This document shows positions 1,730 to 63,156 of a DNA stretch of 64,000 nucleotides, one piece after another. Source of the DNA: a virus; IMG/VR virus record IMGVR_UViG_3300050496_000069. One strand, 5' to 3'. Numbering within the stretch: the first letter of the stretch is position 1; every line of letters begins with the position of its first letter. A program made the translations under genes and the position numbers. The notes beneath the pieces were generated by a model. The model was given only the letters and a program-made list of their open reading frames with translations, made no database searches and was not told the DNA's origin.

Positions 1730-2482
1730 TTATGCGGCGACAGCCACATTTTTGAGCAGCACATTGTCAAGCAGCTGTTGCAAGCGATCAATTCCGTGAG
1801 TGTTGCGGATCTCCATGTCCGGCACCCCGCACCCCGCCTCACTCTCATGACCGCCGGCAATGCCGCCACGACCGACAAGCTGCCAGACCACGCCACCGAG
1901 CTTGCGAACCTCGTCGGCCTCATTGGGGAAACGGCAGTCATCCACGACTACGCAGCCACCTGCGGCGATGATGAGATTTACACGGCGCACCCACAACTCA
2001 ATCCAGAAAGACGGCCCAATGCAGACGCGTCCCCATTGTGTGCCCAAGGTTTGCATTGCATGACGCGGCGTAGCCCCCTGAAGCCAGGCGCATGGCTCTT
2101 CCTTCAGTTCGCCTTCAATCTGCGCTTCACTCAAACCTATCGCCCGCAGCATGTCCTTCAACGGCCCTGCAAACTTCACCAGCTGATAGCCGTTCTTTTC
2201 GACCAGGTACTTGCTGGCCGTGCTCTTGCCGCTGCCAGCAAGGCCGGTCAGCGCGATGACGGGTGGCAGGATGGCTGTGCTGGCCTTTCCAATCGCCGCG
2301 CCGAGTGCACGCAGCTCAGCGGGGACGTTATCATTCGCCGGTACGGCTGTGAGGCAGCCGGTATCTTTGGATGTAATGGTGTCGCCCAGCGTGAAGTTTC
2401 TACGAAAGTCTTCCATGGCAGCCTCGTAAACAATTGACGATTTCGCGATTACCGCGTTCATTCGGTTGATCAGGTCGCTCAT
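1730..2482 (-). CDS. Deoxynucleoside monophosphate kinase (T4 gp1-like)
   Basis: Walker A GLAGSGKST, FAGPLK, TPRHAMQTLGTQWGR and VVVDDCRFPNE motifs. Confidence 0.85.
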   Translation of the reverse strand: MSDLINRMNAVIAKSSIVYEAAMEDFRRNFTLGDTITSKDTGCLTAVPANDNVPAELRALGAAIGKASTAILPPVIALTGLAGSGKSTASKYLVEKNGYQLVKFAGPLKDMLRAIGLSEAQIEGELKEEPCAWLQGATPRHAMQTLGTQWGRVCIGPSFWIELWVRRVNLIIAAGGCVVVDDCRFPNEADEVRKLGGVVWQLVGRGGIAGGHESEAGCGVPDMEIRNTHGIDRLQQLLDNVLLKNVAVAA

Positions 2483-2757
2483 ACCGTCTCCTCAATATTC
2501 TTCTTGTTCTCCACCGAAGGCTTCACAACCGGCCTAAACCGCCACGCCGCAAATGGTGGATCCTCTTCACCGAACTGGGGGCAGACACCGCGGTTCACAC
2601 CCGCCAGGCGGATGCCGGCGTAGTCACCGCCAAGATATGTTCGGCACATGCCCACCCACGTCGCAGTGTAGGTCTCCCCGGCACGAATGCCGAGGTATTG
2701 CTCTGGGAGGGTGGTATCGTCGATGCAGACGACTTCGTCGCCGGATTTGATGGTCAT
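2479..2757 (-). CDS. Phage hypothetical protein
   Basis: Start reassigned to MTIKSG (RBS GGAGG); stop overlaps the next start. Confidence 0.65.
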   Translation of the reverse strand: MTIKSGDEVVCIDDTTLPEQYLGIRAGETYTATWVGMCRTYLGGDYAGIRLAGVNRGVCPQFGEEDPPFAAWRFRPVVKPSVENKKNIEETV

Positions 2758-2926
2758 GTGGCCTCCGGTTTCGCTGCATAGTCCAGTACGGCGCAGACGT
2801 GCTGAGCGAATTGATACCACTCGCGCAAACCAAGACCATTTGGCCGGTCAATTTCTCGCGTCCTTAATGAAGATTCGCCATCGTAAATGCGCCCGATATT
2901 CATGTCGTCGAATGACCATCGCCACA

Positions 2927-3361
2927 TTATGCCGCCTCCTTCATCTCAGCCCGTTCGCGGATCGCGCCCATGATGTCCTTCACGGTCGTCCACGGCACGA
3001 CGACGGTGCGGGTACACTCCTCGCCGTCTGCGTCACGATCTTCGACGCCAAAGCTGAACTCGCCGATGTACGCCGCCTTGGTCGCGCCGCTCGGCGCCAG
3101 CGCCTCCTGCAATCGCTCGACCTTCCCCCGCAAATGCGCCAGAGAAAGATCGTGGAAGCACTCGTTGGTGAACTCCGGCGCCACATCAAGCGGGATGGCG
3201 TAGCTGTCGCGCTCCTTCGGCGTGTACCTCTCCTTGATAGGAATGCCGTGGCTGGTGAACTCTTCGGCGAGCCACCGCCCCGCCTTGTTTCGAATGCCGG
3301 TGTAGCCTTTGTGGCCTGGGCATTCGTACAGGTCTCGTTTCAGAAGCACGTACAGGGTCAT
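2927..3361 (-). CDS. Phage hypothetical protein
   Basis: 144 aa, ATGA-coupled to the HD gene. Confidence 0.65.
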   Translation of the reverse strand: MTLYVLLKRDLYECPGHKGYTGIRNKAGRWLAEEFTSHGIPIKERYTPKERDSYAIPLDVAPEFTNECFHDLSLAHLRGKVERLQEALAPSGATKAAYIGEFSFGVEDRDADGEECTRTVVVPWTTVKDIMGAIRERAEMKEAA

Positions 3362-3996
3362 GCCACCCTCCCCGCCGTCAACGCATCAAACGTCGCCAGG
3401 AACTCCAGCTCCGCTTCCTCCGGTGACCAGTACCGCAGCTTCACGCCCAGCGGCCTATCGTGCTTGGCGCGCCACGGCATGTCACGCAGGTTAACCAGTT
3501 CGTCGGCGATAATGCGGTTGTCCGCATCATGTACCTCGCGTGGCAACTCCCGGTCCAGCTGAAACCGGGCCGCGATAGCCAGCCAGTTGTCCTGCTCGAT
3601 GGCTCGGTAGTTCGTCAGGTACGGCTTCAGCGGCCGCGGAATGTCCACGCAGTAGGCTTCAGGTGCATCATGCATAAGGCCAGCCAAAGCGACCTCAGGC
3701 GCGCGTGTCGCCGCGAGGTGACGTGCGATAAGGACAGAGTGCTCGGCGACGCTATAGAACTTGATGCAGTGACCTGCGTAGCGGCATTGCAGGCTCAGCG
3801 AGTGCGCGATGTCCTCGATGTAGATTTCGTGCGGGCGCGGGTCCATCGGCCAGTATTTGCGGCCTGTGAAGGTCTGCATGAAGTCGCCGACGCGGGATGG
3901 CATGTTATCGTTGGCGGCCACGTACTTGTCCAGCGGGCCGAAGGTGGTTGGGGCGAGTTCTGCCGGTACGGCTTCTTCTCTTCGCATGAACATCAC
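3358..3996 (-). CDS. HD-domain phosphohydrolase (YfdR/YfbR-like 5'-deoxynucleotidase)
   Basis: IEDIAHSLSLQCRYAGH, FYSVAEHS and GLMHDAPEAYCVDIPRPLK motifs. Confidence 0.85.
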   Translation of the reverse strand: MMFMRREEAVPAELAPTTFGPLDKYVAANDNMPSRVGDFMQTFTGRKYWPMDPRPHEIYIEDIAHSLSLQCRYAGHCIKFYSVAEHSVLIARHLAATRAPEVALAGLMHDAPEAYCVDIPRPLKPYLTNYRAIEQDNWLAIAARFQLDRELPREVHDADNRIIADELVNLRDMPWRAKHDRPLGVKLRYWSPEEAELEFLATFDALTAGRVA

Positions 3997-4703
3997 GCAC
4001 CCTCCTTCAATTCACGAATTGTCGGACCTTTGATCTCGATCGTTGAGACCGGACCTCCGGCCACATCGTCATCAAAAACGCCGATAACAAGCCTGCCTGT
4101 GTACCAAGCCAGTGTATCGAAGTTGCTCCGACCACGTAGCAACAGAGGACCGTCCTCATGCTGATGATGCCCGTGCACAACGTGAAGGTCGCCGTAGCCG
4201 TCTTCGGCGCCGTCTGGGTAAAGCATCCACGTATTCTTTTGGGCGTCCTGCTCGTCGAGCGGCACGCCGTCCTGAACGCCAGCATGCACAAAGACGCGCT
4301 TGCCATCATTGTGGGTGATTGGAAGGCCAGCCATCCACTGTAGATGGGCAAGCTCTACAACGCTGACATCAATAGCCGCGCCCACCTCGTGCCCGTAGGA
4401 CATCAGCGTTGCGCCGCCGCCGTTTGGAATCCACCACGAGCTTGCCAGACCGGGGGCGTAGCACGCCGCCATCATGATTTCTTCGTGGTTTCCTTGCAGG
4501 CAAATCCACTTCCATCGAGACGGATCGGTGGGCCCAGCCATCAGCGTCTCAATAACCTGCCGGCTTGCCGGACCGCGATCGACGTAGTCGCCAGTAAATA
4601 CAATCGTCCCGCCGCTATGGCTGGATTGCTCAATACGCTTGATTGCGGCGACAAGCAGATCATGTCTGCCGTGAAGGTCCGCTATAATGAATGTTTTGGT
4701 CAA
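3993..4703 (-). CDS. Metallophosphoesterase, Ser/Thr phosphatase family (lambda NinI/PrpA-like)
   Basis: ADLHG, GDYVDRG, LQGNHE and FVHAG motifs; TTG start after RBS GAGGAG. Confidence 0.85.
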   Translation of the reverse strand: MTKTFIIADLHGRHDLLVAAIKRIEQSSHSGGTIVFTGDYVDRGPASRQVIETLMAGPTDPSRWKWICLQGNHEEIMMAACYAPGLASSWWIPNGGGATLMSYGHEVGAAIDVSVVELAHLQWMAGLPITHNDGKRVFVHAGVQDGVPLDEQDAQKNTWMLYPDGAEDGYGDLHVVHGHHQHEDGPLLLRGRSNFDTLAWYTGRLVIGVFDDDVAGGPVSTIEIKGPTIRELKEGA

Positions 4704-4892
4704 CTGTTTCTCCTCAGTGGTGTGGTGGTTGACCTCCAGTTGGTGGCTGGCGGCCATGGTGCAGTTGGGTGTCAATTTAATTTTTTATACGAAATTGAAA
4801 TATTTAAATGGAAAACCTTTAATTCAGTATAGTAATATTAGTTATTGAGTTTTCAATGACTTATACCATAATATTAAAGAAAGAACATAAAG

Positions 4893-4988
4893 ATGAATAT
4901 ACTAATCCGTGAATTCCTACGAACATTATTGCTGTTTGTGCTTGATGAAGTTTGGGAGATGATTAAGCGTTGGTGGGATGGCGATTAA
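4893..4988 (+). CDS. Candidate 31-aa hydrophobic/amphipathic peptide MNILIREFLRTLLLFVLDEVWEMIKRWWDGD
   Basis: ORF read by eye downstream of a very AT-rich patch; stop overlaps the stop of the minus-strand gene. Confidence 0.4.
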   Translation: MNILIREFLRTLLLFVLDEVWEMIKRWWDGD

Positions 4989-6244
4989 GCCACCCCACCC
5001 CGCTTAAGTTGCTCGTTATCATTCGCAGCCGCATATCGCCCGGCTACCATCTCCGGACGCAGCGTGGAGCGCGCCACTTCGCCATATCGGCGCGAGTATG
5101 TGATGACCTTGGCAGACCGACCCGACAGCCAACCGCCGCCAGCGGCATAAGCATCCGGCGCGGCAAGCGTTTCGTGGCGCTCGACATACATCAGCGCGGA
5201 CTTGCGGCCCTCATCGCTGTGCAGGTGGCCGGCATGAGCGAAGGCATATTTCGAAGCGCCGAACATCTCGCGGAACATACCAGCCAGCGTCGCATCGACC
5301 TGAGCCACGCCGCGCTTGTGTCCGTGATGGTAGAACAGCGCCGTGTCGCCCCACTTGTAGGCGTAGTAGAGCATCGGGCTGGTATCGACGGTTACTCTCG
5401 GCTCATTCTCATAGATCGTGGCCAACAACTCGCGCACCCATACCGATGAGGCCGGATCGTGATTGCCAGAAGCCATGACGATGTGAACGTGCTTGTGCTT
5501 CTGTAGAAGCATGTCGATGACAAGGCGCAATGTGCGGATAACGACGCGAACAACCTTATGCAGGCGAGAATCGGCATCAAGGACGTGCTTGTGCGCAGGT
5601 GTGACACTCTCGAGAGCGTCATGGTGTAAAAGGTCGCCGAGCTGCGCGAGAACGGCCGTGTGCGCCTGCGGAGCGCCTGCCACAGCGGCGGCGAACCAAT
5701 CCAGCAACAACTGCTCTGCCAGCCTTAGATCGTAGTCCGCGCCGGTTTCCTCACGATGCGCCAACATACCGAAATGGCTGTCGGTCACAACGAACTGGTT
5801 GAGCAAATCTTCTTCGACGTGCTGCGGCGCGGGCATGATGGTAATGCGCGGCAGGTCTTCCTTGAGGCCGTCGACCATCGCCTTGAAAACGGCAAGCTGG
5901 CCCTCCGCTTCCACAGCCGTCTTTTGCCACTGCTGGATAACGCGCCCCTCACCATCGACGAGGGCCGACACGCCTTTGACCACGTGGCCATTGGGGATGG
6001 CGAATTTTTCGCCGCGCTCCGGAGCCTGCTGAATGAATGTGCCGCTCGGCGTGTTGCTGATGCGGCTGATGCGGAATCCTGGGAGGACAGGATCTGTGCC
6101 AAGCAGGCCAGCCTCAGCTGCCCGTTTGAGGCTTTCAGCAAGCGCCGACTTGCCGATACCAAGTGCTGCGGCCGCTTTGATCAGCGTGCCGTGCTCTCGG
6201 TAGGCGTAGGCTCTTCGGCGGAGTTCTTCGGTGGGTAGAGGCAT
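4985..6244 (-). CDS. Calcineurin-like metallophosphoesterase/nuclease with N-terminal HTH-like segment
   Basis: TDSHFG, LGDLLHHD, SGNHD, YHHGH and GHLH motifs. Confidence 0.75.
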   Translation of the reverse strand: MPLPTEELRRRAYAYREHGTLIKAAAALGIGKSALAESLKRAAEAGLLGTDPVLPGFRISRISNTPSGTFIQQAPERGEKFAIPNGHVVKGVSALVDGEGRVIQQWQKTAVEAEGQLAVFKAMVDGLKEDLPRITIMPAPQHVEEDLLNQFVVTDSHFGMLAHREETGADYDLRLAEQLLLDWFAAAVAGAPQAHTAVLAQLGDLLHHDALESVTPAHKHVLDADSRLHKVVRVVIRTLRLVIDMLLQKHKHVHIVMASGNHDPASSVWVRELLATIYENEPRVTVDTSPMLYYAYKWGDTALFYHHGHKRGVAQVDATLAGMFREMFGASKYAFAHAGHLHSDEGRKSALMYVERHETLAAPDAYAAGGGWLSGRSAKVITYSRRYGEVARSTLRPEMVAGRYAAANDNEQLKRGGVA

Positions 6245-8682: not shown

Positions 8683-8684
8683 GC

Positions 8685-35182: not shown

Positions 35183-35259
35183 TGGTTGCGGAGGTGAGAT
35201 TTGAACTCACGGCCTCCAGCTTATGAGGCTGGCGAGCTACCGGGCTGCTCTACTCCACG
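35183..35259 (-). tRNA. Phage tRNA-Met (CAT), initiator-like
   Basis: C1:A72 mismatch, GAGC-AGCCCGGTA-GCTC D arm, CCAGC-CTCATAA-GCTGG anticodon arm, GTGAG-TTCAAAT-CTCAC T arm, encoded CCA; 77 nt. Confidence 0.9.
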
Positions 35260-35403: not shown

Positions 35404-36309
35404 TTATGACGCCGCCTTTCGTAGTGCAGCCATCAATTTGTCGTTCGCGGCCATCAGTCGACGTTTTCCTTGTCGTTCGGCCTGCTTGCCTGAGTATCCG
35501 GCCTTGGTCCCGAGATCGGACATGTTCCTCGCTGACCGCGCGGCTTCAAGCGTCGCTCTGTCTTCGTCTTTCAACTCATCAACCGCATCGAACCACTCCT
35601 TGCGATCCGCCATTGCGGCTACGATATCCTGCCACATCATCGAGCCGCCGCCGGCGCATGTGGTCTTTTGCATTCCTAGAAAGCTATCTGCGATCTTGGC
35701 GGAGCCACACGGCAGTCCATCAGGGCAGCGGGTGAATGTAACCTTGCTCATGTCGGTGTTGGCATAAGCCCTGGCCAACTGCGCCTTGGCTTCGTCGTGG
35801 CTTAGATTGATGCGAATACCCTTGTGCCTGCGCCCCGTGACGTATCTGGGCTTCTTGGTGTCCAGCATCTCGGCGAAGTAGTTGTTGCTCTCTATCACCT
35901 CACGTGGGTTTTCGTCACCGCCAAGCGCAACGTCAACCTTGTCCCGTGAACCAAGCATCGCACCTGCTGGCATCCTTGCCGCATATTCCTCAACGCCTCC
36001 GTCGATCTTAAGCCTGAACGCTCTTTCGGTCTGGCTCCCGTCACTGAACCGCAGCTTTCCGATCCGGACAACCTGCCCTGCTGGGTTCCGCTCGACGTCA
36101 CCCGTAGCAACGTTCTTCATGATCTCGGCGACAGATGGCGTTACCAGCCTTTTGCGATCGTGCTTTAGGTCTTCGATTTCGTCGGGGTTGTTGTCGTTTG
36201 CTGGGACGACAGACCAGTTAGTTTGTAGCGGCTCCGGCTGATGATCTGGTTCGGCGGCGAAGCGGCGGACCGCTGCCAGCTGCTCTGCAAGTGATCCATG
36301 TCTAGCCAT
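35404..36309 (-). CDS. Phage protein, candidate late-transcription regulator
   Basis: 301 aa just upstream of the tRNA and packaging genes; C-terminal helical HTH-like segment; function inferred from position. Confidence 0.55.
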   Translation of the reverse strand: MARHGSLAEQLAAVRRFAAEPDHQPEPLQTNWSVVPANDNNPDEIEDLKHDRKRLVTPSVAEIMKNVATGDVERNPAGQVVRIGKLRFSDGSQTERAFRLKIDGGVEEYAARMPAGAMLGSRDKVDVALGGDENPREVIESNNYFAEMLDTKKPRYVTGRRHKGIRINLSHDEAKAQLARAYANTDMSKVTFTRCPDGLPCGSAKIADSFLGMQKTTCAGGGSMMWQDIVAAMADRKEWFDAVDELKDEDRATLEAARSARNMSDLGTKAGYSGKQAERQGKRRLMAANDKLMAALRKAAS

Positions 36310-40278: not shown

Positions 40279-42515
40279 GCCGCCCTGACAAACACCGCCA
40301 GTTCCCGCCGCACAGGATCGCGCTCCTCCCTCTCGACGAGCGCTCCTTCACGCATCAGCGCCGTCACAAGGCTGGAGGCGCGCTTGCGCTGGACATTGTC
40401 GTCCAGATCCAGCCCCACAGCGTACGCTACAGCGGTTCCAACCCAGTTCTTGGCCTTCGGTGACTTCTTGTAGTCGGACGCGCTCACGGCCGCCAGAATC
40501 GACGCTCGCTGGTCCTCCGTGAGGTCTACCGCCACATCCTCGGCGCTCGGCCAATGCCATTCCGTCACCACCGGCGCGAAGTCCTGCGGTTGCGCAAGGC
40601 CGGTTCCGTTGCCAAGCGGTGTCGAGACCAGATGGCGCCATTCTGCCTTGTGTGAGAGCGGCGTCAGGTTGGACTTGCCATAGGTGGTGTAGAAGTATCC
40701 AAAACGATCTTCCTTGTTGATACCCGCCTCACCTGCTTGCTCTTCCGACATGCGGTTTAGGACGCGCACCGAGCGCGCCGCGCCGATCAGCGACACCGCA
40801 CCTCTAGCGTCTTCGACGGTAGCCTCTCGGTCCGCCACCTTCCGCAGATGGTGCACGATATCGATCGAACAATTGGTGTAGTCGGCGATCTGCGCCCAGA
40901 GCTTCGCCACTTTGTCGATCGCGCCGTTGTCATTTTCGTTTACGCCGTGTGTGGACACGAATGGGTCCACGATCATGACATCAATGCCATATCGCTCGAT
41001 CTGCTCGACCACCGCCTCAACGATCGGCTGCTGGATGCGAACGCCAGCCTTCTTGTCTTCGATGGCGACGACCAGCTCCTGTTCGCGGCCGCTATCCAGG
41101 AAGAGATGTCCCTCGAGGTCGGCAGGCTTCAGCTTATAGTGGATGCAAGCCGCCATGATGCGCCGCTCCATTTCGTCACGCGGGTCTTCGGCATTGAATA
41201 TCCACGTGCGCAAGCGCTTGGGTGGTTTGATACCGAGCAGCGCCCTGCCCGACACCATAGCAAGGCCCTCGGCGATGCTGGCTGACGTCTTACCCAGGCC
41301 GCCCGGCGATACCGTGACGGAAACATACTTGCGGATGAAATGCGAGCCGTAGGCAAACTCACGGCGCGGCAATGTCTTTGGGTCTATCCACTTGAATGCC
41401 GTAGCGACAATGGGTGATTGCTGTTCTGTAGGCAAAGGCACGTTGTCGTTGGCGGGCTCGATGTCTCCGTCAGGTGATATGGCTTCCTGCTCGGGAATAT
41501 CCGCGCCGTTTTGCGGCACTTCTTCCTGTACGGTAAGGTCTGCATCGACCCGTGCTGCCTGCTCGCGCAGCCTGCCCTTCTCCAACCCTCGATGGATCAT
41601 GCGCGTGATATCGACCAAGCGCGTGTTGTCGTGCGCAGGGAAGTCCGGCTCCGGGATGTGGCGCGGGTTCTGGATACCAGCCTTCAAGCCGTTCTCAATC
41701 GTCTTGCAGCAGCGTGACCAGTCCCTGCCCCAGCCTCGTGCGACGTCTTGCAGCAGTGCGCGTGCCTCGGCCTCGCTCAGCGCGCCAGCGCCCACTATAG
41801 TGCCGATCGAGAATGCAGCGTCGTTGAGCGCATTGTTGCGCGTACCCATAGGCGCGCCAGCAAGGTCCGCCAGTTCGCGATCAACGGCGGCATCCACATA
41901 GGCGTTGTTGGTTGCGGCCGACAGACTGTACTGCGTGTGAGCGGGCGCCGACTTCGGCAGCAACAGGTCGAGCAGCCATGCCGGCGCATCCGCGATCTCG
42001 CGCGTGTCCGTTTCCCACTTGTAGGAGCGGCCGTTGGCCATCGTGCTGCCAGCAGCGAGCACGTAGCCGCCTTCGGAGCGAATATCCACGCCAGCGCCAA
42101 GCGCTCCGCGGTTGCGCGTGCCCACTACATACTTGAAGTAAATATGTAGGCCGCCGTTCGGGCTCGTCACGCGTGCTGTGTCGGGCATCGGGCCGTGTTC
42201 GGCCTCCATCTCCGTCAGCCAGTCAAAGCCGTTCGCACCGCCCGGCTTGTTGTCGATGTCCAGCGCGAAGAAGCCGGTCTTCTCGCCAGTCGGCAGGCCG
42301 ACGGCCGCATCTGGCCAGTCCGACCACCATCTCTCGATGATGCGCGGAAAGCGCGTTGCGCCCTTGAAACCATTGGGGGTCAATGGCGTCTTCTCGCCGA
42401 GCGTGATGACCTCGCCAGTCGCTTGGTCGACATTCTCCTCGGCGTGCGAGCGGCAGGGAAATACCGGCCAGCCTTGGGCGACGTAGTGTTGCGCTAGTTC
42501 AAGCGGCGTTTGCAA
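40275..42515 (-). CDS. Bifunctional primase-polymerase plus AAA (RepA-like) helicase
   Basis: GWPVFPC, ALDIDNK and SPNGGLHIYF Prim-Pol motifs; SPGGLGKT Walker A; IVDP Walker B. Confidence 0.9.
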   Translation of the reverse strand: MQTPLELAQHYVAQGWPVFPCRSHAEENVDQATGEVITLGEKTPLTPNGFKGATRFPRIIERWWSDWPDAAVGLPTGEKTGFFALDIDNKPGGANGFDWLTEMEAEHGPMPDTARVTSPNGGLHIYFKYVVGTRNRGALGAGVDIRSEGGYVLAAGSTMANGRSYKWETDTREIADAPAWLLDLLLPKSAPAHTQYSLSAATNNAYVDAAVDRELADLAGAPMGTRNNALNDAAFSIGTIVGAGALSEAEARALLQDVARGWGRDWSRCCKTIENGLKAGIQNPRHIPEPDFPAHDNTRLVDITRMIHRGLEKGRLREQAARVDADLTVQEEVPQNGADIPEQEAISPDGDIEPANDNVPLPTEQQSPIVATAFKWIDPKTLPRREFAYGSHFIRKYVSVTVSPGGLGKTSASIAEGLAMVSGRALLGIKPPKRLRTWIFNAEDPRDEMERRIMAACIHYKLKPADLEGHLFLDSGREQELVVAIEDKKAGVRIQQPIVEAVVEQIERYGIDVMIVDPFVSTHGVNENDNGAIDKVAKLWAQIADYTNCSIDIVHHLRKVADREATVEDARGAVSLIGAARSVRVLNRMSEEQAGEAGINKEDRFGYFYTTYGKSNLTPLSHKAEWRHLVSTPLGNGTGLAQPQDFAPVVTEWHWPSAEDVAVDLTEDQRASILAAVSASDYKKSPKAKNWVGTAVAYAVGLDLDDNVQRKRASSLVTALMREGALVEREERDPVRRELAVFVRAA

Positions 42516-43794: not shown

Positions 43795-44024
43795 GCTTGT
43801 GCCTCCGCCCATTTGATCCACGCCAAGAGCTTCTTTGCAGGAAAGCTACGCAGTCGGCTGCCGTCATCCTTGACCTGCAGCAGGTATCCACGCGGAAACT
43901 TCTCCGGTGGCTTGAAGCCCTGAGGCAAAACCAAAGCGACGCTAGCCTTGCTCTCTTCTAGACCTAGTTCGCGCGCACCTGTGAGGCTTGCGTTGCAGGC
44001 TTCTTTCATTTCGGCGGGGGTCAT
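43791..44024 (-). CDS. Phage hypothetical protein
   Basis: 77 aa, ATGA coupled on both sides. Confidence 0.65.
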   Translation of the reverse strand: MTPAEMKEACNASLTGARELGLEESKASVALVLPQGFKPPEKFPRGYLLQVKDDGSRLRSFPAKKLLAWIKWAEAQA

Positions 44025-45277
44025 GCTGCCACTCCAAACAAATCAGCACGCCGATTGTCATTTGCCGGTACCGCAGCGGGTTCGTCATCCTTGCTAGTCG
44101 CTCCAATCGCCCACGCAATTCGAGCAGTGGCGATAGGTATGTATTCGTCCTCACGCTCGCAGCCGATAAAATGAAAGCCCTCGAAAACAGCCGCCTTGCC
44201 TGTGCTCCCTGAGCCCATGAAAGGATCAAGAATTACGCCGCCGGGTGGCGTGATAAGGCGGCAGAGCCACTGCATAAGCGTGGTGGGCTTTACGGTTGGG
44301 TGGGTGTTGGCGCGGAGCGTTTTGCCTCGCTGATAGGCATTATCCGCAGCGACGGCCGGGCCGTCGCTCGTTGTCGACTTCGTTGCGCTTTCCAGACCAG
44401 CGTCTCTGTCGGCGCGGCTGGCCTTGGCGCAGTAGAAGAAGCGGGCTGCAGATTTGTCTAGTTCGATACGTGGCGCGAAGTGCTCTCGTGCGCCAAAGTC
44501 TCCGTAGACTCCTCGGCTTTCCTTCTTGCCGTGCTCTGGCCCAACGGCACGCTGCTGCCCTGGAGCATCAGGAAACGCTGCCAGCACCTCGTCGCTACCG
44601 TCGTGGATGATGTTGGCGGGCCAGCGGCCAATTGCTACCCGACCGTCGTCTTCTGCGCCCTTAAACTGTCCATAAATTTCATTGCGGCTTGCAGACGGGT
44701 TAAAACGCTCCTCATCTCCAACCCGACAACCATCCACATTGATCGCACCCACGCCCCACTCAGCAAGGTTAGCAGCGACGGTGCCAGTCAAAGGTTTTCG
44801 CGCTAGAGCAATAGGCTCCCATGCTGGCTTGAGTGCGGTACCCCAGCCCTCCCAATCGCCATGCTGGTTGTGAGACTTCGGAAAGCCCGACCCATAAACC
44901 CAGCCAAGTTGATCGCGGATCTCAAATCCAGCATCTTCGATCGCAACAGCCATACGGTGATAGGTTCGCGTGCCAGAGAATGCCACCACGTGGCCGCCTG
45001 GCTTCAAAGCGCGCAGAACTTCGGCCCAGAACTCCTCTGAGAATGCGACCTCTCCTGTATCCCACTGCTTGCCCATGAAACCGGCAGCCCCGCGACCATA
45101 AACGTCTTTGGCCGGGGCGGAACCCGGCTTTCCGAAACGCTTCTGGATCGAGACCAGCGCATAAGGCGGGTCGGTAACGACACTGTCGATCGAGTTGTCG
45201 GCAAGGCCGCGCAACACGTCGCGGCAATCGTTTTGGTGCAGCACGACTCTTCCGTCGTGCATCGAGGTGATGCTCAC
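44021..45277 (-). CDS. DNA amino-methyltransferase (N6-A/N4-C, beta-class order), orphan
   Basis: VVTDPPY catalytic motif precedes HPTVKP and LDPFMGSGSTG SAM-binding motif. Confidence 0.92.
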   Translation of the reverse strand: MSITSMHDGRVVLHQNDCRDVLRGLADNSIDSVVTDPPYALVSIQKRFGKPGSAPAKDVYGRGAAGFMGKQWDTGEVAFSEEFWAEVLRALKPGGHVVAFSGTRTYHRMAVAIEDAGFEIRDQLGWVYGSGFPKSHNQHGDWEGWGTALKPAWEPIALARKPLTGTVAANLAEWGVGAINVDGCRVGDEERFNPSASRNEIYGQFKGAEDDGRVAIGRWPANIIHDGSDEVLAAFPDAPGQQRAVGPEHGKKESRGVYGDFGAREHFAPRIELDKSAARFFYCAKASRADRDAGLESATKSTTSDGPAVAADNAYQRGKTLRANTHPTVKPTTLMQWLCRLITPPGGVILDPFMGSGSTGKAAVFEGFHFIGCEREDEYIPIATARIAWAIGATSKDDEPAAVPANDNRRADLFGVAA

Positions 45278-46115: not shown

Positions 46116-46633
46116 GCCACCCTCACCGACAGCTGCTCACCCGCCGCACCCATCTGCGCACCGCGGACCTTCTTGCCCGCCTGCAACGCTTCCTTGATGG
46201 CGGTCTTGTCCGGCGACGTAGAAACGCGCACGTAGGCCTTCGGTAACGCGGCCTCGTCAATGATCTCAACCGACGCTGCCTTCTTGCCGATGGAGATGGT
46301 CGCCTCAGCCAGCGGTACGCGCGGTACGCCGGCTGCTTTCAACAGCTTGAACATCAGACTGCGCATGGCTTCCTTGCGGCGATCGGCCCGCGACTTGCGT
46401 GCTTGTAGGTCGGAGATGCGGCCAGCCACGGCCTTGGCCAGGCTATCGGCATCGCGCTCGCCATTGACGAGGCGAGTCAGGACGGCGTGGAAGTTGGTCG
46501 CGCCTTCCAGCATGTCGGCGCGTAGCTCTTCGTCGGCCTCGAGCTCCGGATAAGCGGCCAGCATGTCGGCGAAGAGTGCTTCTAGGTTGGCGACGTCGGC
46601 GGCTAAGAAGTTGTCGTTAGCTGGTTTGGTCAT
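46112..46633 (-). CDS. Siphovirus Gp157-like protein
   Basis: VPLAEATISIGK..IIDEAALPKAY..PDKTAIKEALQAGKKVRGA. Confidence 0.85.
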   Translation of the reverse strand: MTKPANDNFLAADVANLEALFADMLAAYPELEADEELRADMLEGATNFHAVLTRLVNGERDADSLAKAVAGRISDLQARKSRADRRKEAMRSLMFKLLKAAGVPRVPLAEATISIGKKAASVEIIDEAALPKAYVRVSTSPDKTAIKEALQAGKKVRGAQMGAAGEQLSVRVA

Positions 46634-47548: not shown

Positions 47549-49303
47549 TCAGAACGGCACGTCATCGTCCATCAATACCCGCCAATCCTCTTCCTCTGGC
47601 ACGTTGTCATTCACCGGTGACACCCGATTGTCATTCGCAGCACCGACCGCATGGCCCACAACGTCCCAGTATTTCTGGCGCGGCTTAACCGTGATCTCGA
47701 CGGTGTCGGCCAACTCCGCCTGACGCTCGATCCATTCCAGCACAGACTTGGGAAACGGCATCTTGCCGCCATGCGCGCGCCAGTAGCGGTCGGCCTTGGA
47801 CTTCGGGAAGCCTTGGTGCTGAGGGCAGATCCACTCATTGATCGCGGTCATGCCGGACATGTAGCTGACCTTTACCGACGGCGGCTTATCGCCCTTCCCT
47901 TCGTGGTAGTAGAAACTGCGTGACGTCACTGTGCGAGGTTCTGGTTCTGCCGTCGACATGATCGGCGTGTCTGCTGCGGTCGCTGTGATCTTCGGGCTGT
48001 CATCGATGTCGAACTCATAGCCGCAGCAAGAGCACGTGCGCGCGGAGGCATGCACCTTTTCGCCACAGCCGAAGCGTCCATTCTTGTCCTCGACGTCGAA
48101 CGGGCACACCTTCACCGGCGCTTCGCCGTCGCCCTTGTTGGGCGTCTTTGGCTGCACCATGTCGACTGGTCCATGCTTGTCGACGAGACCGGCGAAATCC
48201 AGCACGAGGCACGAAGGTTTCGGACCAGCCTTGATCGCCGCTATGCGCTCTTCAGGCGTCTCAAGAGGCATGCCGGACGCGTATATGACGCGAGTGCCGC
48301 GGCCCATCATTTGCACATAGAGCGATACCGACAACGTCGGACGCAATGCCGCGATCAGGTCGACGCCCTTGTGATTGAAGCCGGTAGTGAGGACCGAGTT
48401 GTTGGTGAGCGCACGGATCTTGTAGGACTTGAAGTCCTCGATGATGCGCCGGCGCTCATCCTTCGGGGTTTCGCCGCTGATCATTTCGCATGATATGCCC
48501 CGCGATCGGATCTCATCACGCACGTGCTCGGCGTGCTCAACTCCCGAACAAAAGCAGAGCCACGACTTGCGGTCGGCGCCTTTCGCAACGATTTCATCAA
48601 CGGCGGAGCGCGTGACGTCCATCTTGTCCACGGCAGCCTGCAATGCTGACTGCTTGTAATCGCCTCCGTGCCTGCCGACGCCTTTCATGTCGAAGGTGGT
48701 TGCCGTTGCCTTGGACGAAAGTGGCGCGAGATAACCGTCGCTGACACCGTCGGCGATGCCGTAGGTGTAGACGATCTGGTCGAAGAGCCGATCGTCGCCT
48801 TCGTCCAGCCGACCTGTGTCCAGCCGGTAAGGCGTGGCGGTGAGCCCCAGGATCTTCATGTCTGGATTGATCGCGCGCAACGCCGCTATGAAGCGGCCGT
48901 ACATTGTGTTGCTGCTGGCGGGGATCAGATGGCACTCGTCCACCATCAGCACGTCGATATGCCCGATGAGCTCAGCTTTGCTGTGCACGGTCTGGATTCC
49001 CGCAAAGATGATCTGGCTACGCGCGTCACGGCGACCCAGGCCGGCGGAGAAAATGCCAGCGGGCGCAAACGGCCAAATGCCGAGCAACTCAAGATAATTC
49101 TGCTCGATCAGTTCGGCGACATGGGTAGCCACGAGGATCCGCATGTCCGGCCAGCCCTCGACCAGCCTCTTGATGAGGGAAGCCATCAGAAGGGACTTGC
49201 CGCATCCTGTTGCGAGATCGACAAGAGGATTGCCAGCCGTCGTTGACCAATAATCGAAAACGGCGTTTTCTGCCTCTTCCTGGTAGTGGCGAAGTTGGAG
49301 CAT
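47549..49303 (-). CDS. Superfamily II (DEAD/DEAH-type) helicase with zinc ribbon
   Basis: ATGCGKS, DECH, GLTATP, TTGFN and QMMGRGTR motifs; C-terminal CP..C..CSCC. Confidence 0.92.
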   Translation of the reverse strand: MLQLRHYQEEAENAVFDYWSTTAGNPLVDLATGCGKSLLMASLIKRLVEGWPDMRILVATHVAELIEQNYLELLGIWPFAPAGIFSAGLGRRDARSQIIFAGIQTVHSKAELIGHIDVLMVDECHLIPASSNTMYGRFIAALRAINPDMKILGLTATPYRLDTGRLDEGDDRLFDQIVYTYGIADGVSDGYLAPLSSKATATTFDMKGVGRHGGDYKQSALQAAVDKMDVTRSAVDEIVAKGADRKSWLCFCSGVEHAEHVRDEIRSRGISCEMISGETPKDERRRIIEDFKSYKIRALTNNSVLTTGFNHKGVDLIAALRPTLSVSLYVQMMGRGTRVIYASGMPLETPEERIAAIKAGPKPSCLVLDFAGLVDKHGPVDMVQPKTPNKGDGEAPVKVCPFDVEDKNGRFGCGEKVHASARTCSCCGYEFDIDDSPKITATAADTPIMSTAEPEPRTVTSRSFYYHEGKGDKPPSVKVSYMSGMTAINEWICPQHQGFPKSKADRYWRAHGGKMPFPKSVLEWIERQAELADTVEITVKPRQKYWDVVGHAVGAANDNRVSPVNDNVPEEEDWRVLMDDDVPF

Positions 49304-49854: not shown

Positions 49855-50369
49855 CCCGCCTCCCGCAGCAGCCCAAGCACCCTCGCCCGCTGCTTGATGA
49901 CGATTTGGCGCACGCGCTCTTTGGTAAGGCCATGGTCATTCCCAATGGCCTCCAGCGTCTCACCCATTGCCCTACGCATCAGCATCGTGCCATTGCGGCC
50001 TTCCAGAAGAGAGACTACGCGCGACAAGTCGGTGCCCTCCTCCTGATGCGGATCGGTTGAGCCCGGCAGTTCTTCAAAGGCCGAGAGACTGCAGACTTCG
50101 GCAGAGCGCGACTTGGTGGAGTTGGTGCGAACGAACTCCTGCGCTGTCCCCCGAACGCAGAGGACGGCCCACGTCCAGAAGGTCTCAAGGCGGCATTCGC
50201 GATGCCGGCGCAACATGACGACCATCGCCGACTGAAACAGTTCATCGGCGGCGTCTTCGTTCTTCGTGATCTTTCGCGCCAGTCTCCGCAAGGCCGGCTC
50301 GTAAGCCAACAGCTTGCGGTCGAACTCGGGACTGCGCGGGTTGTTATCATTCGCCGCAATAGGTGGCAT
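49851..50369 (-). CDS. Sigma70-family (ECF-like) sigma factor
   Basis: Region 2 LRRLARKIT..ADELFQ..TFWTW; region 4 LEAIGNDHGLTKERVRQI. Confidence 0.7.
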   Translation of the reverse strand: MPPIAANDNNPRSPEFDRKLLAYEPALRRLARKITKNEDAADELFQSAMVVMLRRHRECRLETFWTWAVLCVRGTAQEFVRTNSTKSRSAEVCSLSAFEELPGSTDPHQEEGTDLSRVVSLLEGRNGTMLMRRAMGETLEAIGNDHGLTKERVRQIVIKQRARVLGLLREAG

Positions 50370-53586: not shown

Positions 53587-54423
53587 TTAGGCTGCGAAAG
53601 AAAACGGCGACCGCTTCTTGGGCGGCTCGTAGCCAATCGGATATCCGCAGCCATCCTCACCTTCATCGTACCGGTTCTCGTCGAACTGCTCGCCCTTCAG
53701 CTCAGCGATTTTCTTGAACAGACCAATCGCACTGCCCGGCTGCTCTTCGTTGTCGTTTGCGACCCACGCATCCTTGCCTTCTTCATCAACGGTCAACGCC
53801 GAGATTGCGGCATCGATCGAGTAAGGAGTGCCTTCCGTGCCGAGAACGACCTTCTCGCCATAAGCGCCGCCGATCTGATCTTTGAGTTCCTCCCAGGTGT
53901 CGATCTTCACCTTACGGCCAGCCAGCGCGATCTTGAGGATATCCCCCTTGCCGATCGTGTAACCGCGATCCTGATACTTGAGGACGCGTGTCGCTGACGC
54001 CAGTGGATAGCGAGTGCCAGGATGGAATCGCAGAAAGCGTTGAGAGTTGTGTTTCAGGAAGTCGTCGTGGAACGAGAATTCGTCAGTGTCGAAATCCAGT
54101 GCGCCCATCACGACGGTGAAGTCGAAAGCGTCAAAGATGTCCTGCGCTGTCGGGAAGAAATCGAAGTGCATGAACTGGATGGGAGTGCCGCCATTGTCTG
54201 TAAATGTCACGGCGCGCTTTGTCGTGGATACGCACCAGAAGCCATTCTCGTATGCGTCCGCGACAGCATATTCGAAGGCCTCACGGCTCTTGAAGTAGAC
54301 GTCGACGTCGTTGATGTCTCGATTGGTGAATACGCTCGTCACCGCTCCGCCGGCAGCGAATGCCCCGGGGATCGGGTAGCATTTCTCCGTGATCTTTCTG
54401 GCTTCCGCCTTATAGTTCGTCAT
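53587..54423 (-). CDS. Nucleotidyltransferase related to the CCA-adding/poly(A) polymerase head domain
   Basis: AGGAVTSVF..NDVDVYF (GG..DxD) and FDFTVVMGA (compare DFTINAMA). Confidence 0.6.
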   Translation of the reverse strand: MTNYKAEARKITEKCYPIPGAFAAGGAVTSVFTNRDINDVDVYFKSREAFEYAVADAYENGFWCVSTTKRAVTFTDNGGTPIQFMHFDFFPTAQDIFDAFDFTVVMGALDFDTDEFSFHDDFLKHNSQRFLRFHPGTRYPLASATRVLKYQDRGYTIGKGDILKIALAGRKVKIDTWEELKDQIGGAYGEKVVLGTEGTPYSIDAAISALTVDEEGKDAWVANDNEEQPGSAIGLFKKIAELKGEQFDENRYDEGEDGCGYPIGYEPPKKRSPFSFAA

Positions 54424-54481: not shown

Positions 54482-55039
54482 TTACTTGCTGCCCCAGGGC
54501 CGGCGCGTCGTGCCTGAGGCCGCAGCGGCAGGCTTGTTGTCATTGCTGGCGGCAGTGCGGCGGTTGTCGTTGGCTGCGACTGGCTGTGGTGCGGGCTGGT
54601 TGACGTCGACAGCCGGGGCTGGGACGTTTCCTTCATCTTCGAAGAAGTAGCGCTTAATCTCGGCGCGCGCTGGGTAGCCGTTCTGCGCCTTGCCAAGGCC
54701 GATCTTGGCAGTGAACGCCAGGAAGTGGAGCTCTTCACTGTCCTCGACCGCAGAAACACCAACGGCGCGGCAAAGGCTGGCGAACTGCTTCTGCCCGATC
54801 TCCTGGGCTTGCGGGTTGGAGTTTTCGAGATTGTAGGTCGTGAAGAGCTTGCGGCCCTTCAGGCTTTCAGGCTCGATAACAACCATAGTCGTCTTGAGGA
54901 TGGTGCCGTTGCCCGCCTTCGTCGGGCCGACGTCACTCGCCTCGATCTCGAGCTTGTAAATGCCGTTTGGAAGTTCGGCATAGTCGTTCTGCTGTGTGTC
55001 ATGTGCGGTCGCATCAAATCTTTGACCAAGTCCTGCCAT
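54482..55039 (-). CDS. DUF669-like ssDNA-binding/recombination protein
   Basis: YAELPNGIY..GRKLFTTYNL..IGQKQFASLCRAVG; follows the AAA gene. Confidence 0.75.
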   Translation of the reverse strand: MAGLGQRFDATAHDTQQNDYAELPNGIYKLEIEASDVGPTKAGNGTILKTTMVVIEPESLKGRKLFTTYNLENSNPQAQEIGQKQFASLCRAVGVSAVEDSEELHFLAFTAKIGLGKAQNGYPARAEIKRYFFEDEGNVPAPAVDVNQPAPQPVAANDNRRTAASNDNKPAAAASGTTRRPWGSK

Positions 55040-55072: not shown

Positions 55073-55711
55073 TTAGAGAAGTCGCCCTTGCTCGCGAGCG
55101 AAGTCTAATGGGTGCTTTGCTGCCTTCCTAAGATTGCAGCGAGGGCAAAGTATCTGGAGGTTCTCTTTGCCGTTTGATCCTCCACGCGAGAGCGGCATTA
55201 TGTGGTCAACATGCCGCTCTGTGGTTTTGCGAACCGACGCGCCACATTCTGCGCATCGGTATTTCTGTCGTCGCAGTATTTCCGCTACGTCTTCTTTCGT
55301 ATGTTGCCCGGAACTCCCTCGACGCAGAGCTCTACGATTTCGGTCTGAAACAAGCCTGATCTCCTGCGCGCGTTCAGGGTTAGCCTCTACCCACCTCCTG
55401 GCTCGTCGAACGTTGTTCGCTGAGACTTCCGGCTTGGCGTTGGACCTTCTTGCATACTCACGTTTTAGGTCAGGATTGTTCTGCGCCCACTTCCTCAAGC
55501 TGGTGATCCTGCTTTCGCGCTCCTTTTCAGGATTTGATGCAGCCCACTTCCTTCGATGTTCTCGCTGGCAATCAGCGCATTGACCGGTGCTGGCGTAACG
55601 GCGAGCTACATGGCCTTTCTTACAAGGGAGGCCCGTGAAGAAATGCCTTGCACCTATCTCCCTCGCCTTCTCCTTTGAAGCAGGAAGATTGTCGTTGGCC
55701 ACATCGAGCAT
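55073..55711 (-). CDS. Free-standing HNH endonuclease
   Basis: FFTGLPCKKGH..CADC; QKYRCAEC..HVDHIMPLSRGGSN..LCPRCNLRK. Confidence 0.85.
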   Translation of the reverse strand: MLDVANDNLPASKEKAREIGARHFFTGLPCKKGHVARRYASTGQCADCQREHRRKWAASNPEKERESRITSLRKWAQNNPDLKREYARRSNAKPEVSANNVRRARRWVEANPERAQEIRLVSDRNRRALRRGSSGQHTKEDVAEILRRQKYRCAECGASVRKTTERHVDHIMPLSRGGSNGKENLQILCPRCNLRKAAKHPLDFAREQGRLL

Positions 55712-58694: not shown

Positions 58695-59035
58695 GCCGCC
58701 ACCCCACGCAGAGCATACTCATTGACTGCCTGCCCGGCCTGCAAGTCAGCATCGTCGATGTTGTCGTTCGCAGCGACGCGCGGCAGCGAAACTGGCATGT
58801 GGCCGGATAGCGTAGAGCAACCGCCGTTGTGCGGCGCCAAGTGCGTCACGCGGTCGGGATTGTTGTCGTTGGCCGGGATGAAGGTGCGCTGCTTCTGCAG
58901 GCCGTATGTGCGCCGCAGCCGCTGGTATGCGGCCATTGGCTTGACGTTGTGTCTGGCGGCAATATCTGCGACGCTCTCGCCGTTCTCACGGCGCGCGTGC
59001 ATATCCGCCAGCATAGTGCTGGTGATAAGCGTCAT
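58691..59035 (-). CDS. HTH protein, first gene of the main leftward early operon
   Basis: GESVADIAARHNVKPMAAYQRL. Confidence 0.65.
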   Translation of the reverse strand: MTLITSTMLADMHARRENGESVADIAARHNVKPMAAYQRLRRTYGLQKQRTFIPANDNNPDRVTHLAPHNGGCSTLSGHMPVSLPRVAANDNIDDADLQAGQAVNEYALRGVAA

Positions 59036-59138: not shown

Positions 59139-59741
59139 ATGCCTGAAGTTAAGTCGCGCCTCCTGCAATCGATACTGAAAGAACAGAAGCGGAGAGCCGT
59201 AAAGGATCGCGCTGTGTACGAAGAGCTAGGCGTGCCTCAGCAGACCTACAGCACCTGGAAGGCTGGCGTCATTCCAAGACCTAGGCAATTCCCGGCGATT
59301 GCCGCCTTCCTGGGTGTCTCCGAAGATGACGTGGCAGAGATGGCTCGCGAGGCGGCAGAAACCGCTCCTTCCATCACGCCTATAACGGTTGCCCGCACCT
59401 ACGGCAAAATCTCCGACCGCAAGGCTGGCAAGTTCAAGTTCGAGCCCATCAACGACGGCCGCAAACGCATTCCCGAAGGCCGTTACGCCATCGTCATCGA
59501 CACGAAGGTGATGGAGCCAGTCTTCCACGTTGGCGTGAAAGCTTGGCTCGACCCTTCCCGCTGGCCCGCCCTTGGTGACGACGTGCTTGCGCATTCGGGT
59601 GGGTTTGCTTGGATCGGGCGATTCGAAGGCATGAGCAACGGCGCTGTTCAACTGGGCCGCTACGATGGTTCGCAGCTTGAGGTGAAAAACGTGGAAGCTG
59701 TTCATGTCATCGTCCTTTCGGAGCGGGTGGTTACGGCGTAG
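59139..59741 (+). CDS. XRE HTH regulator with degenerate S24-like C-terminal domain
   Basis: ELGVPQQTYSTWKAG HTH; YAIVIDTKVMEP where GxSMxP is expected. Confidence 0.7.
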   Translation: MPEVKSRLLQSILKEQKRRAVKDRAVYEELGVPQQTYSTWKAGVIPRPRQFPAIAAFLGVSEDDVAEMAREAAETAPSITPITVARTYGKISDRKAGKFKFEPINDGRKRIPEGRYAIVIDTKVMEPVFHVGVKAWLDPSRWPALGDDVLAHSGGFAWIGRFEGMSNGAVQLGRYDGSQLEVKNVEAVHVIVLSERVVTA

Positions 59742-60366: not shown

Positions 60367-61074
60367 ATGGCAAAGCTGAGTGACATCATAAGGTCTAAGC
60401 GCAAGGAAATGGGCTTAACGCAGAAGGCGTTCGGCAACCTTTTTGGTGCGCAGCAGACCACCGTCTCCGATTGGGAGAAGGGTAAAATATCGATGATGCG
60501 CAACTGGCAGAAGCTCGCTGTGTCTCTTGGCCTGCGCGAATCGGAATTTCTCGACCTTATGGCCGAGGCAACGACAGAATCAGAAAAGACAGAGCGGATG
60601 ATCCCTGCTCTGCGTCAGGCAACCGCGCCTCAAATCAGTACTGGTAGCATTATTGCCGCTCCTAAACCGCCGTCCGGGGAGCGTGACGTGCCCGTGCTGG
60701 GCAGGTCAAAAGGAGGGTCAGACGGTGAGTTTGAGTTTAATGGGCAGGTCATGGGCTGGGAGTGGAGGCCGCCACACCTGGCGGGAGTCGTTGAGGCTTA
60801 CGCGACGTATGTCGACGGCGAAAGCATGTACCCGAGGTATAAGCCGGGCGAAACGGTCTGGACAAATCCACCCAAGCCAATAGCGCGTGGCGACGATATC
60901 ATCGTGCAGCTAGCTCCAAATGAAGAGGATGGCGTTCCTCGCGGCTTCATCAAAGAGTTTGTGCGGTGGGAGCCAAGCTTTCTGGTCGTGTGCCAGTTCA
61001 ATCCTCCGATGGAAATCAAATATCCTCGCGATGACGTCGTCTCGATCCACAAAATCGACTACGCACAGAAATAA
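60367..61074 (+). CDS. CI/LexA-type phage repressor (HTH plus S24 peptidase)
   Basis: MGLTQKAFGNLFGAQQTTVSDWE HTH; VDGESMYP Ser and FIK Lys catalytic pair. Confidence 0.9.
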   Translation: MAKLSDIIRSKRKEMGLTQKAFGNLFGAQQTTVSDWEKGKISMMRNWQKLAVSLGLRESEFLDLMAEATTESEKTERMIPALRQATAPQISTGSIIAAPKPPSGERDVPVLGRSKGGSDGEFEFNGQVMGWEWRPPHLAGVVEAYATYVDGESMYPRYKPGETVWTNPPKPIARGDDIIVQLAPNEEDGVPRGFIKEFVRWEPSFLVVCQFNPPMEIKYPRDDVVSIHKIDYAQK

Positions 61075-61660: not shown

Positions 61661-61661
61661 G

Positions 61662-61952: not shown

Positions 61953-61990
61953 AACACCACCCACCACCACACCACATCGAGGAGACAATC

Positions 61991-62347
61991 ATGTCCAGAA
62001 GACGCGACACTACCTACACCCCTGCCCCGTATGCCGGCGACGGTCTTGAAGTCGTAGCCAACATTTCATCTGAAACCGCACCGACTACCATTCTCGTGGC
62101 GGTCGCCAAATGGCACGAGCGCAGGAAGGACGGTCGTAATCGCGTCATCGCTTCAAGCTTCGTGCTCTCGTCGCGGCGAATGATAATGGGAGGAGAAGAT
62201 GAGGACGACAGACATATTCGTGGTGGGGATTCACCGAAGGAATCGCCTGATTTCCTCGCAGACAACTGCCCGACTAGCCCACCTGCGGGTCTAAAAACCG
62301 AAGTTTTATTTTGCATAGCACTAAAGGCGCCCCAGCGCCGGGAATGA
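61991..62347 (+). CDS. Phage hypothetical protein
   Basis: Start MSRRRD after a CACCAC-rich leader and GAGGAG. Confidence 0.5.
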   Translation: MSRRRDTTYTPAPYAGDGLEVVANISSETAPTTILVAVAKWHERRKDGRNRVIASSFVLSSRRMIMGGEDEDDRHIRGGDSPKESPDFLADNCPTSPPAGLKTEVLFCIALKAPQRRE

Positions 62348-62684
62348 AGTAGCCAGTCTCTCCAGCTATGCCCAACAATTTCCCTCTGATCACGGTCGTG
62401 GGAGCTCCTCCCTTGCCGCCACCGGACAACTTACGGCCCTTGCGAGTTTCGAAGTGGAGGTAATCTACGACAGCGCCGTGATTTATAAGGACCATTGAAA
62501 TGTAATCATCGGAGTCAATATAGAGGTCTTTAGTCAATGAGCCACCATCTCCACCAAATCCTTGGTCGTTGATGATGATTTTGTCGATAAACGAGCCAAC
62601 CCGCATGGAGAGCTTACTGAAACCAGTTTGCTCGGGGAACGGCGTTCCTTTGTTCTTGCCCAACTCAAAGACATACTCAGCCAT
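62274..62684 (-). CDS. Jacalin-like (beta-prism) lectin-domain protein (moron)
   Basis: GSFIDKI, FGGDGG, VVDYLHFET..GR..GGGKGG and LLGIAG..G pattern; no signal peptide. Confidence 0.65.
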   Translation of the reverse strand: MAEYVFELGKNKGTPFPEQTGFSKLSMRVGSFIDKIIINDQGFGGDGGSLTKDLYIDSDDYISMVLINHGAVVDYLHFETRKGRKLSGGGKGGAPTTVIRGKLLGIAGETGYFIPGAGAPLVLCKIKLRFLDPQVG

Positions 62685-62880
62685 TCGCTTGCTCCCCCAT
62701 TGGAAATGCAAGTGTTGTCCGAATTTCTTTATTCTGTCCAGACCGGAGGTATCAATTGTGTGAGTTTGAAAACATCGCAGTACTACATGGAATTCTTCGG
62801 CTACACCTCTCTGGGCCGTGCGCTTTCGAAAAATGTTCGTCGTCTGTCAGCATTGCATTTGCCGCCAGGGAGAGGCGAAC

Positions 62881-63156
62881 ATGACAGGCACTACGAACGC
62901 GCCATCCAAATCTAAGGCTGCAGCCAATGACAACCCTCCTCGCCTCATCGGCCGCAAGGAGGCTGCAGAATATCTTGGCATAGCCGAGTCCACGTTCTCG
63001 ATGTGGGTGGCCACTCTCAAGATGCCGCAGCCGATCGCCGGCACCAGAAGATGGGACAAAAAGGCGATCGATGCTCGCCTTGACGAACTGAGCGGCTTGT
63101 CAGCCAATGACAACGAAGACCCATATGAGAAATGGATGAGGGAAAATGCGAGTTAA
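62881..63156 (+). CDS. xis: Excisionase / AlpA-like HTH
   Basis: LIGRKEAAEYLGIAESTF..MPQPIAGTRRWDKKAIDARL; overlaps the int start. Confidence 0.8.
   Translation: MTGTTNAPSKSKAAANDNPPRLIGRKEAAEYLGIAESTFSMWVATLKMPQPIAGTRRWDKKAIDARLDELSGLSANDNEDPYEKWMRENAS

Follow-up and report, generated by a model that had tools for sequence, protein, structure and literature searches.

A window of 64,000 nucleotides (the whole stretch of DNA analysed here) from the IMG/VR virus record IMGVR_UViG_3300050496_000069 was studied for the tetrapeptide ANDN, which is encoded in frame 16 times in 14 of its proteins. The varied coding of the motif shows it to be under selection at the peptide level, and sequence comparison gives good support for the view that it copies, within the phage genome, the head of the host transfer-messenger RNA (tmRNA, ssrA) tag. 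Turnover of the carrier proteins by the protease ClpXP, to which they would be tethered by the host adaptor SspB, is the probable, though far from certain, consequence. The tag mimic is written in the reading frames themselves and is not a product of trans-translation. Judged by its genes, the phage is a temperate Agrobacterium phage and a relative of Rhizobium phage 16-3: its large terminase is 76% identical to the 16-3 counterpart, and copies of its primase in prophages of Agrobacterium burrii, A. pusense and A. tumefaciens are 94%, 92% and 85% identical, respectively. On account of these primase copies, the host is considered to be Agrobacterium or close kin.

Six-frame translation of the window gave 17 occurrences of ANDN, 14 on the minus strand and 3 on the plus strand. 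All but one are read in the sense frame of a called gene (14 genes in all), at the positions listed in the original prediction, which had been made from the sequence alone and in which a minus-strand copy is given by the low coordinate of its 12-nt site. The chance expectation of well below one copy put forward there was borne out, with 0.15 copies expected from amino-acid composition against 16 found in frame. Shuffling of residues within proteins (n = 2000) gave a mean of 0.17 copies and a maximum of 3, by which chance or composition as the source of the copies was ruled out; ANDN is the top-enriched 4-mer of the phage proteome (log10 P about -24.6). The head is extended to AANDN in seven copies and to PANDN in six. 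The reported variants VNDN, SNDN (twice), DNDN and a C-terminal ANDK were recovered, and ENDN is present as well.

The copies are confined to particular parts of proteins and of the genome. The carriers are early proteins of replication, nucleotide metabolism and regulation. Fifteen of the 16 in-frame copies avoid the domains matched by Pfam or PHROGs and sit in linkers, in C-terminal tails or in extensions of the N-terminus (Table 1), and the 16th, at 36190, is in a protein of unknown function whose sole match, phrog_36072, covers its whole length. The region of head, tail and lysis genes is free of the motif, as had been noted, with zero copies between 5026 and 36190. The large genes at 11.1-32.1 kb were assigned with PHROGs to endolysin, tail fibres, tape measure, major tail, major head, protease, portal and large terminase, and genes for nucleotide metabolism, replication, regulation and integration lie outside this interval; the probability that all 16 copies would miss the late genes by chance is 5e-4. 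A restriction of the motif to non-structural proteins holds in the window, where late proteins are without ANDN, but not in the family, where the portals of 16-3 and several relatives end in a full mimic. Some of the protein labels were less secure: the label NTase (53587-54423) could not be verified, there being no Pfam match and only PHROGs matches of unknown function, and the labels Xis and HTH have weak helix-turn-helix (HTH) matches as their basis.

The motif varies in its bases and is constant in its residues. All four Ala codons, both Asn codons and both Asp codons are used, as claimed at the outset, and 11 distinct 12-mers occur among the 17 copies. No genic ANDN was found in other frames or antisense in the six-frame translation of the window. 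Up to 13 relatives were compared at three orthologous sites, namely the N-termini of sigma and Gp157 and the linker of the primase, where the residues are constant while codons and flanks vary: the N-terminal ANDN of the sigma factor is kept in seven orthologues and that of Gp157 in six, with differing codons in both cases, and xNDNxP is present in 12 of 13 primase orthologues within a linker that is otherwise unalignable. Selection on the peptide and not on the DNA, as first proposed, is thus upheld by use of the sense frame only, by the varied 12-mers and by synonymous change at orthologous sites.

Set against these observations, a nucleic-acid signal (an operator, a recombination or packaging signal, a translational pause, or mimicry of the tmRNA resume region) that chances to read ANDN is barely credible. 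Such a signal would be suited by two copies whose 12 bases match those of the host tmRNA gene exactly, and by the 17th copy, at 62176, which lies outside an intact frame just 5' of a ribosome-binding site. However, 16 of 16 genic copies are on the sense strand and in one frame with third positions that vary freely, orthologues switch codons and keep residues, and nothing in common is visible among the bases upstream of the copies. The stray copy is itself a frameshifted coding copy. Compared with the orthologue in the related prophage L004, the small gene at 61990-62200 (+) lacks one nucleotide some 13 codons 5' of the ANDN, and since L004 has the same sequence as a coding C-terminus, 62176 is not a free DNA site and was ruled out as 'intergenic' evidence for a DNA signal. 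A DNA-level motif was ruled out by frame, strand and codon variation, the frame statistics coming near to refuting it by themselves. With its frame restored, the small gene would carry ANDN 8 residues from the stop codon; the shift may stem from a sequencing error or a recent mutation, or it may be programmed.

Host tags were taken from the tmRNA genes of host genomes with related prophages and read with ARAGORN, which gave ANDNNAKEYALAA for two Agrobacterium species, ANDNYAEARLAA for Limoniibacter and Phyllobacterium, and ANDNYAPVALAA for a Hyphomicrobiales metagenome-assembled genome (MAG). These tags open with ANDN and the phage form is [A/P]ANDN, in agreement with the proposal that the motif is the head of the alphaproteobacterial tag. 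Native tags (Caulobacter AANDNFAEEFAVAA, Agrobacterium ANDNNAKEYALAA) and phage copies share the [A]ANDN start, and many family members share in addition the length of 12-14 residues and the Ala-Ala end; the phage copy differs in being gene-encoded and mostly head-only at N-termini or in linkers, and conservation does not extend to the middle of the tag. In three hosts, ssrA adjoins sspB. A phage-encoded SspB was looked for and none was found. According to PMC9393093, the Caulobacter tag drives rapid proteolysis, which is slowed by deletion of sspB.

The abundance of the motif was compared with the host background. The coding pattern GCNAAYGAYAAY has 44 matches in the 6.1-Mb A. burrii genome, of which 16 are in one 55-kb prophage related to the window phage and one is the tmRNA gene; outside prophages this amounts to about 4.5 matches per Mb of A. 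burrii DNA, whereas the window has 266 per Mb. A 400-kb host sample held 2 ANDN in 113,679 amino acids. By such comparisons, which had been proposed together with the original prediction, ANDN is approximately 46-60 times denser in phage than in host sequence. Ala-Ala (AA) C-termini are found on 18% of confident phage proteins and on 4.9% of those in the host sample (p = 0.001), and among phage proteins on 5 of 14 ANDN carriers as compared with 8 of 87 non-carriers (p = 0.017).

Completion of the head to a tag-like tail was counted over the open reading frames (ORFs) of the window and 12 related prophage loci, which together hold 101 ANDN copies. Forty-one of these lie no more than 20 residues from the stop codon, and 24 of the 41 end in Ala-Ala; 33 of the 101 lie 11-17 residues from the stop codon with a mode of 13-14, the host tags being 12-13 residues long. 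The layout of a full mimic in the family is ANDN, 7-13 residues, Ala-Ala and stop. Within the window, AA at a tag-like distance from the head is found in the methyltransferase only, and the exonuclease tail ends in VA. Phage 16-3 has 18 ANDN copies, with a portal that ends in a 12-residue mimic, and a portal end made up of ANDN, 8-11 residues and AA is shared by 16-3, by the related loci L003, L007 and L010 and by many viral contigs; a structural protein is therefore tagged there. The window portal (29181-30410, minus strand) has an AA end without ANDN. In HK97, which has a related terminase and an E. coli host, zero ANDN were found.

The design extends beyond these relatives. Viral contigs were scanned for GCC-type ANDN followed by 7-10 residues, AA and a stop codon, and at least 120 stretches matched. 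Among the matches listed, 106 of 122 were in frame (40% expected), and 42 of these 106 came after an ORF of at least 60 residues, most of the others being real tmRNA genes. Several of the contigs have no detectable protein in common with the phage, yet contain two to four such motifs each. Many viral contigs of low guanine-plus-cytosine (GC) content (L054, L057, L071, L101, L105 and others) carry genuine tmRNA genes, with just 3-30 open codons upstream and a tag made up of ANDN, 6-8 residues and YALAA; these may be attachment-site flanks or phage-borne tmRNAs.

In the mechanism favoured here, host SspB would bind the [A/P]ANDN head and tether the carrier to ClpX, and ClpXP would then unfold and break down those carriers whose C-terminus is tag-like or Ala-Ala. 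A head on its own would provide the tether and would require a further, weaker signal to ClpX, as in the N-terminal RseA fragment of E. coli. The outcome would be early proteins that are short-lived and under host control; lytic functions might be cleared after the lysogeny decision or late in infection, and in relatives unassembled portal would be removed.

SspB structures have been solved for A. tumefaciens (2NYS) and for Caulobacter SspB-alpha (2QAS/2QAZ), and the tag residues read by the latter were reportedly defined by Lessner and by Chien in 2007. Residues 21-145 of Agrobacterium SspB were folded as a complex with residues 379-418 of the methyltransferase, alongside three controls. The SspB-tail fold scored 0.42 and the best of the three controls 0.02; in the predicted complex, the confident contacts on the methyltransferase tail are at residues 402-411, which span the motif. 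That mark was reached in the benchmark by 51 of 78 solved complexes and by 2 of 108 mismatched pairs. Passes at a score of 0.60 or below comprised only 5 of the 78 solved complexes and all 4 of the mismatches that passed (of 180), and for this reason the SspB-tail pass was graded as weak support.

Several observations weigh against adaptor-dependent turnover of this kind. The fold pass may reflect memory of the solved structures 2NYS, 2QAS and 2QAZ. The window contains one full mimic ending in AA, and fourteen copies are head-only, several of them at N-termini. ANDE-type mimics are not in excess: viral contigs were scanned for ANDE followed by 4-8 residues, AA and a stop codon, and the matches listed were mostly real tmRNA genes, with no multi-copy locus, and comprised 19 in frame behind long ORFs (5 gap lengths) against 26 out of frame (8 gap lengths). 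A generalisation to ANDE-type tags was ruled out by this absence of an in-frame excess among the matches listed. Finally, the related-primase loci L015 and L017 (Phyllobacterium and a Hyphomicrobiales MAG) are without ANDN, and the tags of their hosts open with ANDN. Host necessity was thereby ruled out, and the motif is therefore regarded as a lineage habit; taken with the scans, the results indicate a habit of certain phage lineages in hosts with ANDN tags and not a universal one. It can be suggested, at a little short of an even chance, that a lineage of temperate alphaproteobacterial phages (16-3 together with unrelated GC-rich phages) uses the host-derived motif as a proteome-wide, adaptor-dependent degron that would set the lifetimes of early proteins and of free portal through ribosome-rescue proteolysis.

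Most copies in the window are head-only and on abundant early proteins, which would also be expected of a decoy. The motifs would then bind SspB and the AA ends ClpX, so that adaptor and protease are saturated in infection and loss of the carriers is a side effect; other ClpXP substrates would be stabilised, for example phage regulators or the labile antitoxins found in abortive-infection systems. The sequence evidence for tethered turnover fits titration equally, and the paired heads 8-9 residues apart on the tails of the helicase and the DUF669 protein would suit a dimeric adaptor. Titration is nevertheless judged unlikely, as one abundant decoy protein would be cheaper than 14 modified enzymes, and the frequent completion to a tag-length Ala-Ala end in many proteins is a need of substrates and not of competitors for SspB.

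The carriers are mostly DNA-metabolism proteins, and a further alternative is that ANDN is a docking peptide for a reader other than SspB, either the phage beta clamp (52469-53521) or another host factor, which would gather replication and nucleotide-metabolism enzymes. A sliding clamp is encoded by the window phage and by 16-3, clamp-binding peptides are likewise placed on termini and linkers, and the helicase tail ends like the host single-stranded DNA-binding protein (SSB), so that other host docking peptides appear to be copied by the phage. A clamp or hub would, however, leave the identity with the tag head, the tag-like length and the Ala-Ala ends unexplained. Known clamp-binding motifs are hydrophobic, sigma, HTH and Xis-like proteins are among the carriers, as are portals in relatives, and the design is shared by unrelated contigs. 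This explanation is accordingly held to be quite improbable, and tethering to ClpXP by SspB is preferred.

Two side observations concern the proteins named above. The product of the clamp gene (52469-53521, minus strand) is a DNA polymerase III beta sliding clamp with all three domains, and its counterpart in 16-3 is p081. The last seven codons of the helicase gene (47552-47572, minus strand) read MDDDVPF, where host SSB ends in MDDDIPF, and helicase orthologues in relatives end in DDVPF, DDIPF, DDIQF or GIPF. By this likeness, the phage has copied a second docking peptide of its host, the C-terminal tip of SSB, onto the same helicase tail as ANDN and VNDN.

Related uses of SspB and of tag-like sequences have been described. 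According to PMC5587285, which cites Flynn et al. 2004, a non-ssrA substrate, the N-terminal fragment of RseA, is delivered by SspB in E. coli. Its SspB-binding peptide lies apart from a C-terminal ClpX signal of Ala-Ala type, which resembles the phage carriers with their enrichment in AA ends, but its SspB-binding sequence is unlike the tag, and one host protein is involved as opposed to 14 viral proteins. In the integration-dependent immunity of cluster P and G mycobacteriophages, Int and Rep bear C-terminal ssrA-like tags (Broussard et al. 2013, as summarised in PMC9635641). In those phages as well, ssrA-like tags encoded by phage genes hand lysis-lysogeny regulators to ClpXP; there, however, only the C-terminal end of the tag is used, on two proteins and in hosts without SspB, whereas the adaptor-binding head is spread here across the early proteome. 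In the mycobacteriophage scheme the repressor tag is lost on integration, with attP lying inside the repressor gene. A tagged repressor of that type was not found, the repressor-like proteins (59139-59741 and 60367-61074) ending in TA and QK, neither of which is AA; the window stops short of the integrase end. PMC5587285 also describes gp18 of Pseudomonas phage pf16 as a phage-encoded SspB homologue. Phages of the pf16 type carry the adaptor and the window phage carries the ligand of the adaptor, and both touch the SspB-ClpXP route.

Mimicry of short linear motifs is an established concept for eukaryotic viruses. In both cases, unrelated viral proteins have repeatedly gained a short docking peptide of the host in their disordered regions; the difference is that a bacterial virus is concerned here, with one motif over much of its early proteome. 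A search of the literature for ANDN, AANDN or ssrA-like together with phage returned no description of the motif. The initial impression that the system was not recognisable as one already described held for the proteome-wide copy of the SspB-binding head, which was not found in the literature searched, but C-terminal ssrA-like tags of phages are known (PMC9635641); within that literature, the new element is the adaptor-binding head copied across the early proteome.

The 64,189-bp virus record has a completeness rating of 100% and nearly all of it is the window, whose GC content is 56.6%; bases 1-284 of the window are not part of the record. Accessory genes encode a Ser/Thr kinase (37443-38519, minus strand) and a NinI-like Ser/Thr phosphatase (3993-4757, minus strand), and a protein with a jacalin-like lectin domain is encoded at 62274-62684 (minus strand) in the immunity and integration region. 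The ANDN copies and the transfer RNA genes are listed in Table 1.

Table 1. Copies of ANDN and its variants, and tRNA genes, in the window (strand in brackets).
Feature	Position	Gene or carrier	Place of the copy	Protein C-terminus
tRNA-Lys(ttt)	336-411	within phage		
ANDN	2327..2338 (-)	dNMP kinase (1730-2482)	residue 49; N-terminal extension, kinase domain from about residue 75	AA
ANDN	3904..3915 (-)	HD/YfbR-like hydrolase (3358-3993)	residue 27, ahead of domain 74-162	VA
ANDN	5015..5026 (-)	DNA repair exonuclease/phosphoesterase (4985-6244)	13 residues from stop; tag-length tail	VA
tRNA-Met(cat)	35183-35259	within phage		
ANDK variant	35437..35448 (-)	301-aa protein (35404-36309)	14 residues from stop; ANDN there in relatives' orthologues	
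ANDN	36190..36201 (-)	301-aa protein, function unknown (35404-36309, phrog_36072)	residue 37	
ANDN	41442..41453 (-)	Prim-Pol/AAA_25 primase (40275-42515)	residue 355; hypervariable interdomain linker	AA
Full tag look-alike	44024..44065 (-)	N6/N4 DNA methyltransferase (44021-45277)	C-terminus; ANDN + 10 residues, 14-residue tail	VAA
ANDN	46610..46621 (-)	Gp157 protein (46112-46633)	residue 5, ahead of domain 17-171	
ANDN + VNDN	47603..47638 (-)	ResIII/SNF2 helicase (47549-49303)	residues 556, 564; C-terminal tail past last matched domain	
ANDN	50343..50354 (-)	sigma-70-like factor (49851-50369)	residue 6, ahead of region 2	
ANDN	53749..53760 (-)	278-aa protein, function unknown (53587-54423)	residue 222, past PHROG-matched core 62-212	AA
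ANDN + SNDN	54536..54574 (-)	DUF669 protein (54482-55039)	residues 156, 165; C-terminal tail past domain 15-121	
ANDN	55688..55699 (-)	HNH endonuclease (55073-55711)	residue 5	
ANDN, two copies	58760..58873 (-)	114-aa protein (58691-59035)	residues 55, 89, past weak HTH	AA
17th ANDN, out of frame	62176..62187 (+)		homologous to C-terminal copy in 71-aa ORF of related prophage L004	
ANDN	62923..62934 (+)	Xis-like HTH_17 protein (62881-63156)	residue 15, ahead of HTH	
ANDN	63103..63114 (+)	same Xis-like HTH_17 protein (62881-63156)	17 residues from stop, past HTH	

Phage 16-3 with Sinorhizobium meliloti, and Agrobacterium, are tractable systems in which the reading of the motifs can be addressed. 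If they are read by SspB and ClpXP, the lifetime of proteins would be a programmed layer of phage gene regulation, set for many proteins by a four-residue host mimic. This would be the first described case of proteome-scale degron mimicry in a bacterial virus; it would extend short-linear-motif mimicry from eukaryotic viruses to bacteriophages, and a naturally occurring series of graded, SspB-dependent degrons would become available for alphaproteobacteria. Phage development would be coupled to the load on the ribosome-rescue proteolysis route, and in a classic phage family the choice between lysis and lysogeny would be tied to the state of trans-translation and proteolysis in the host.

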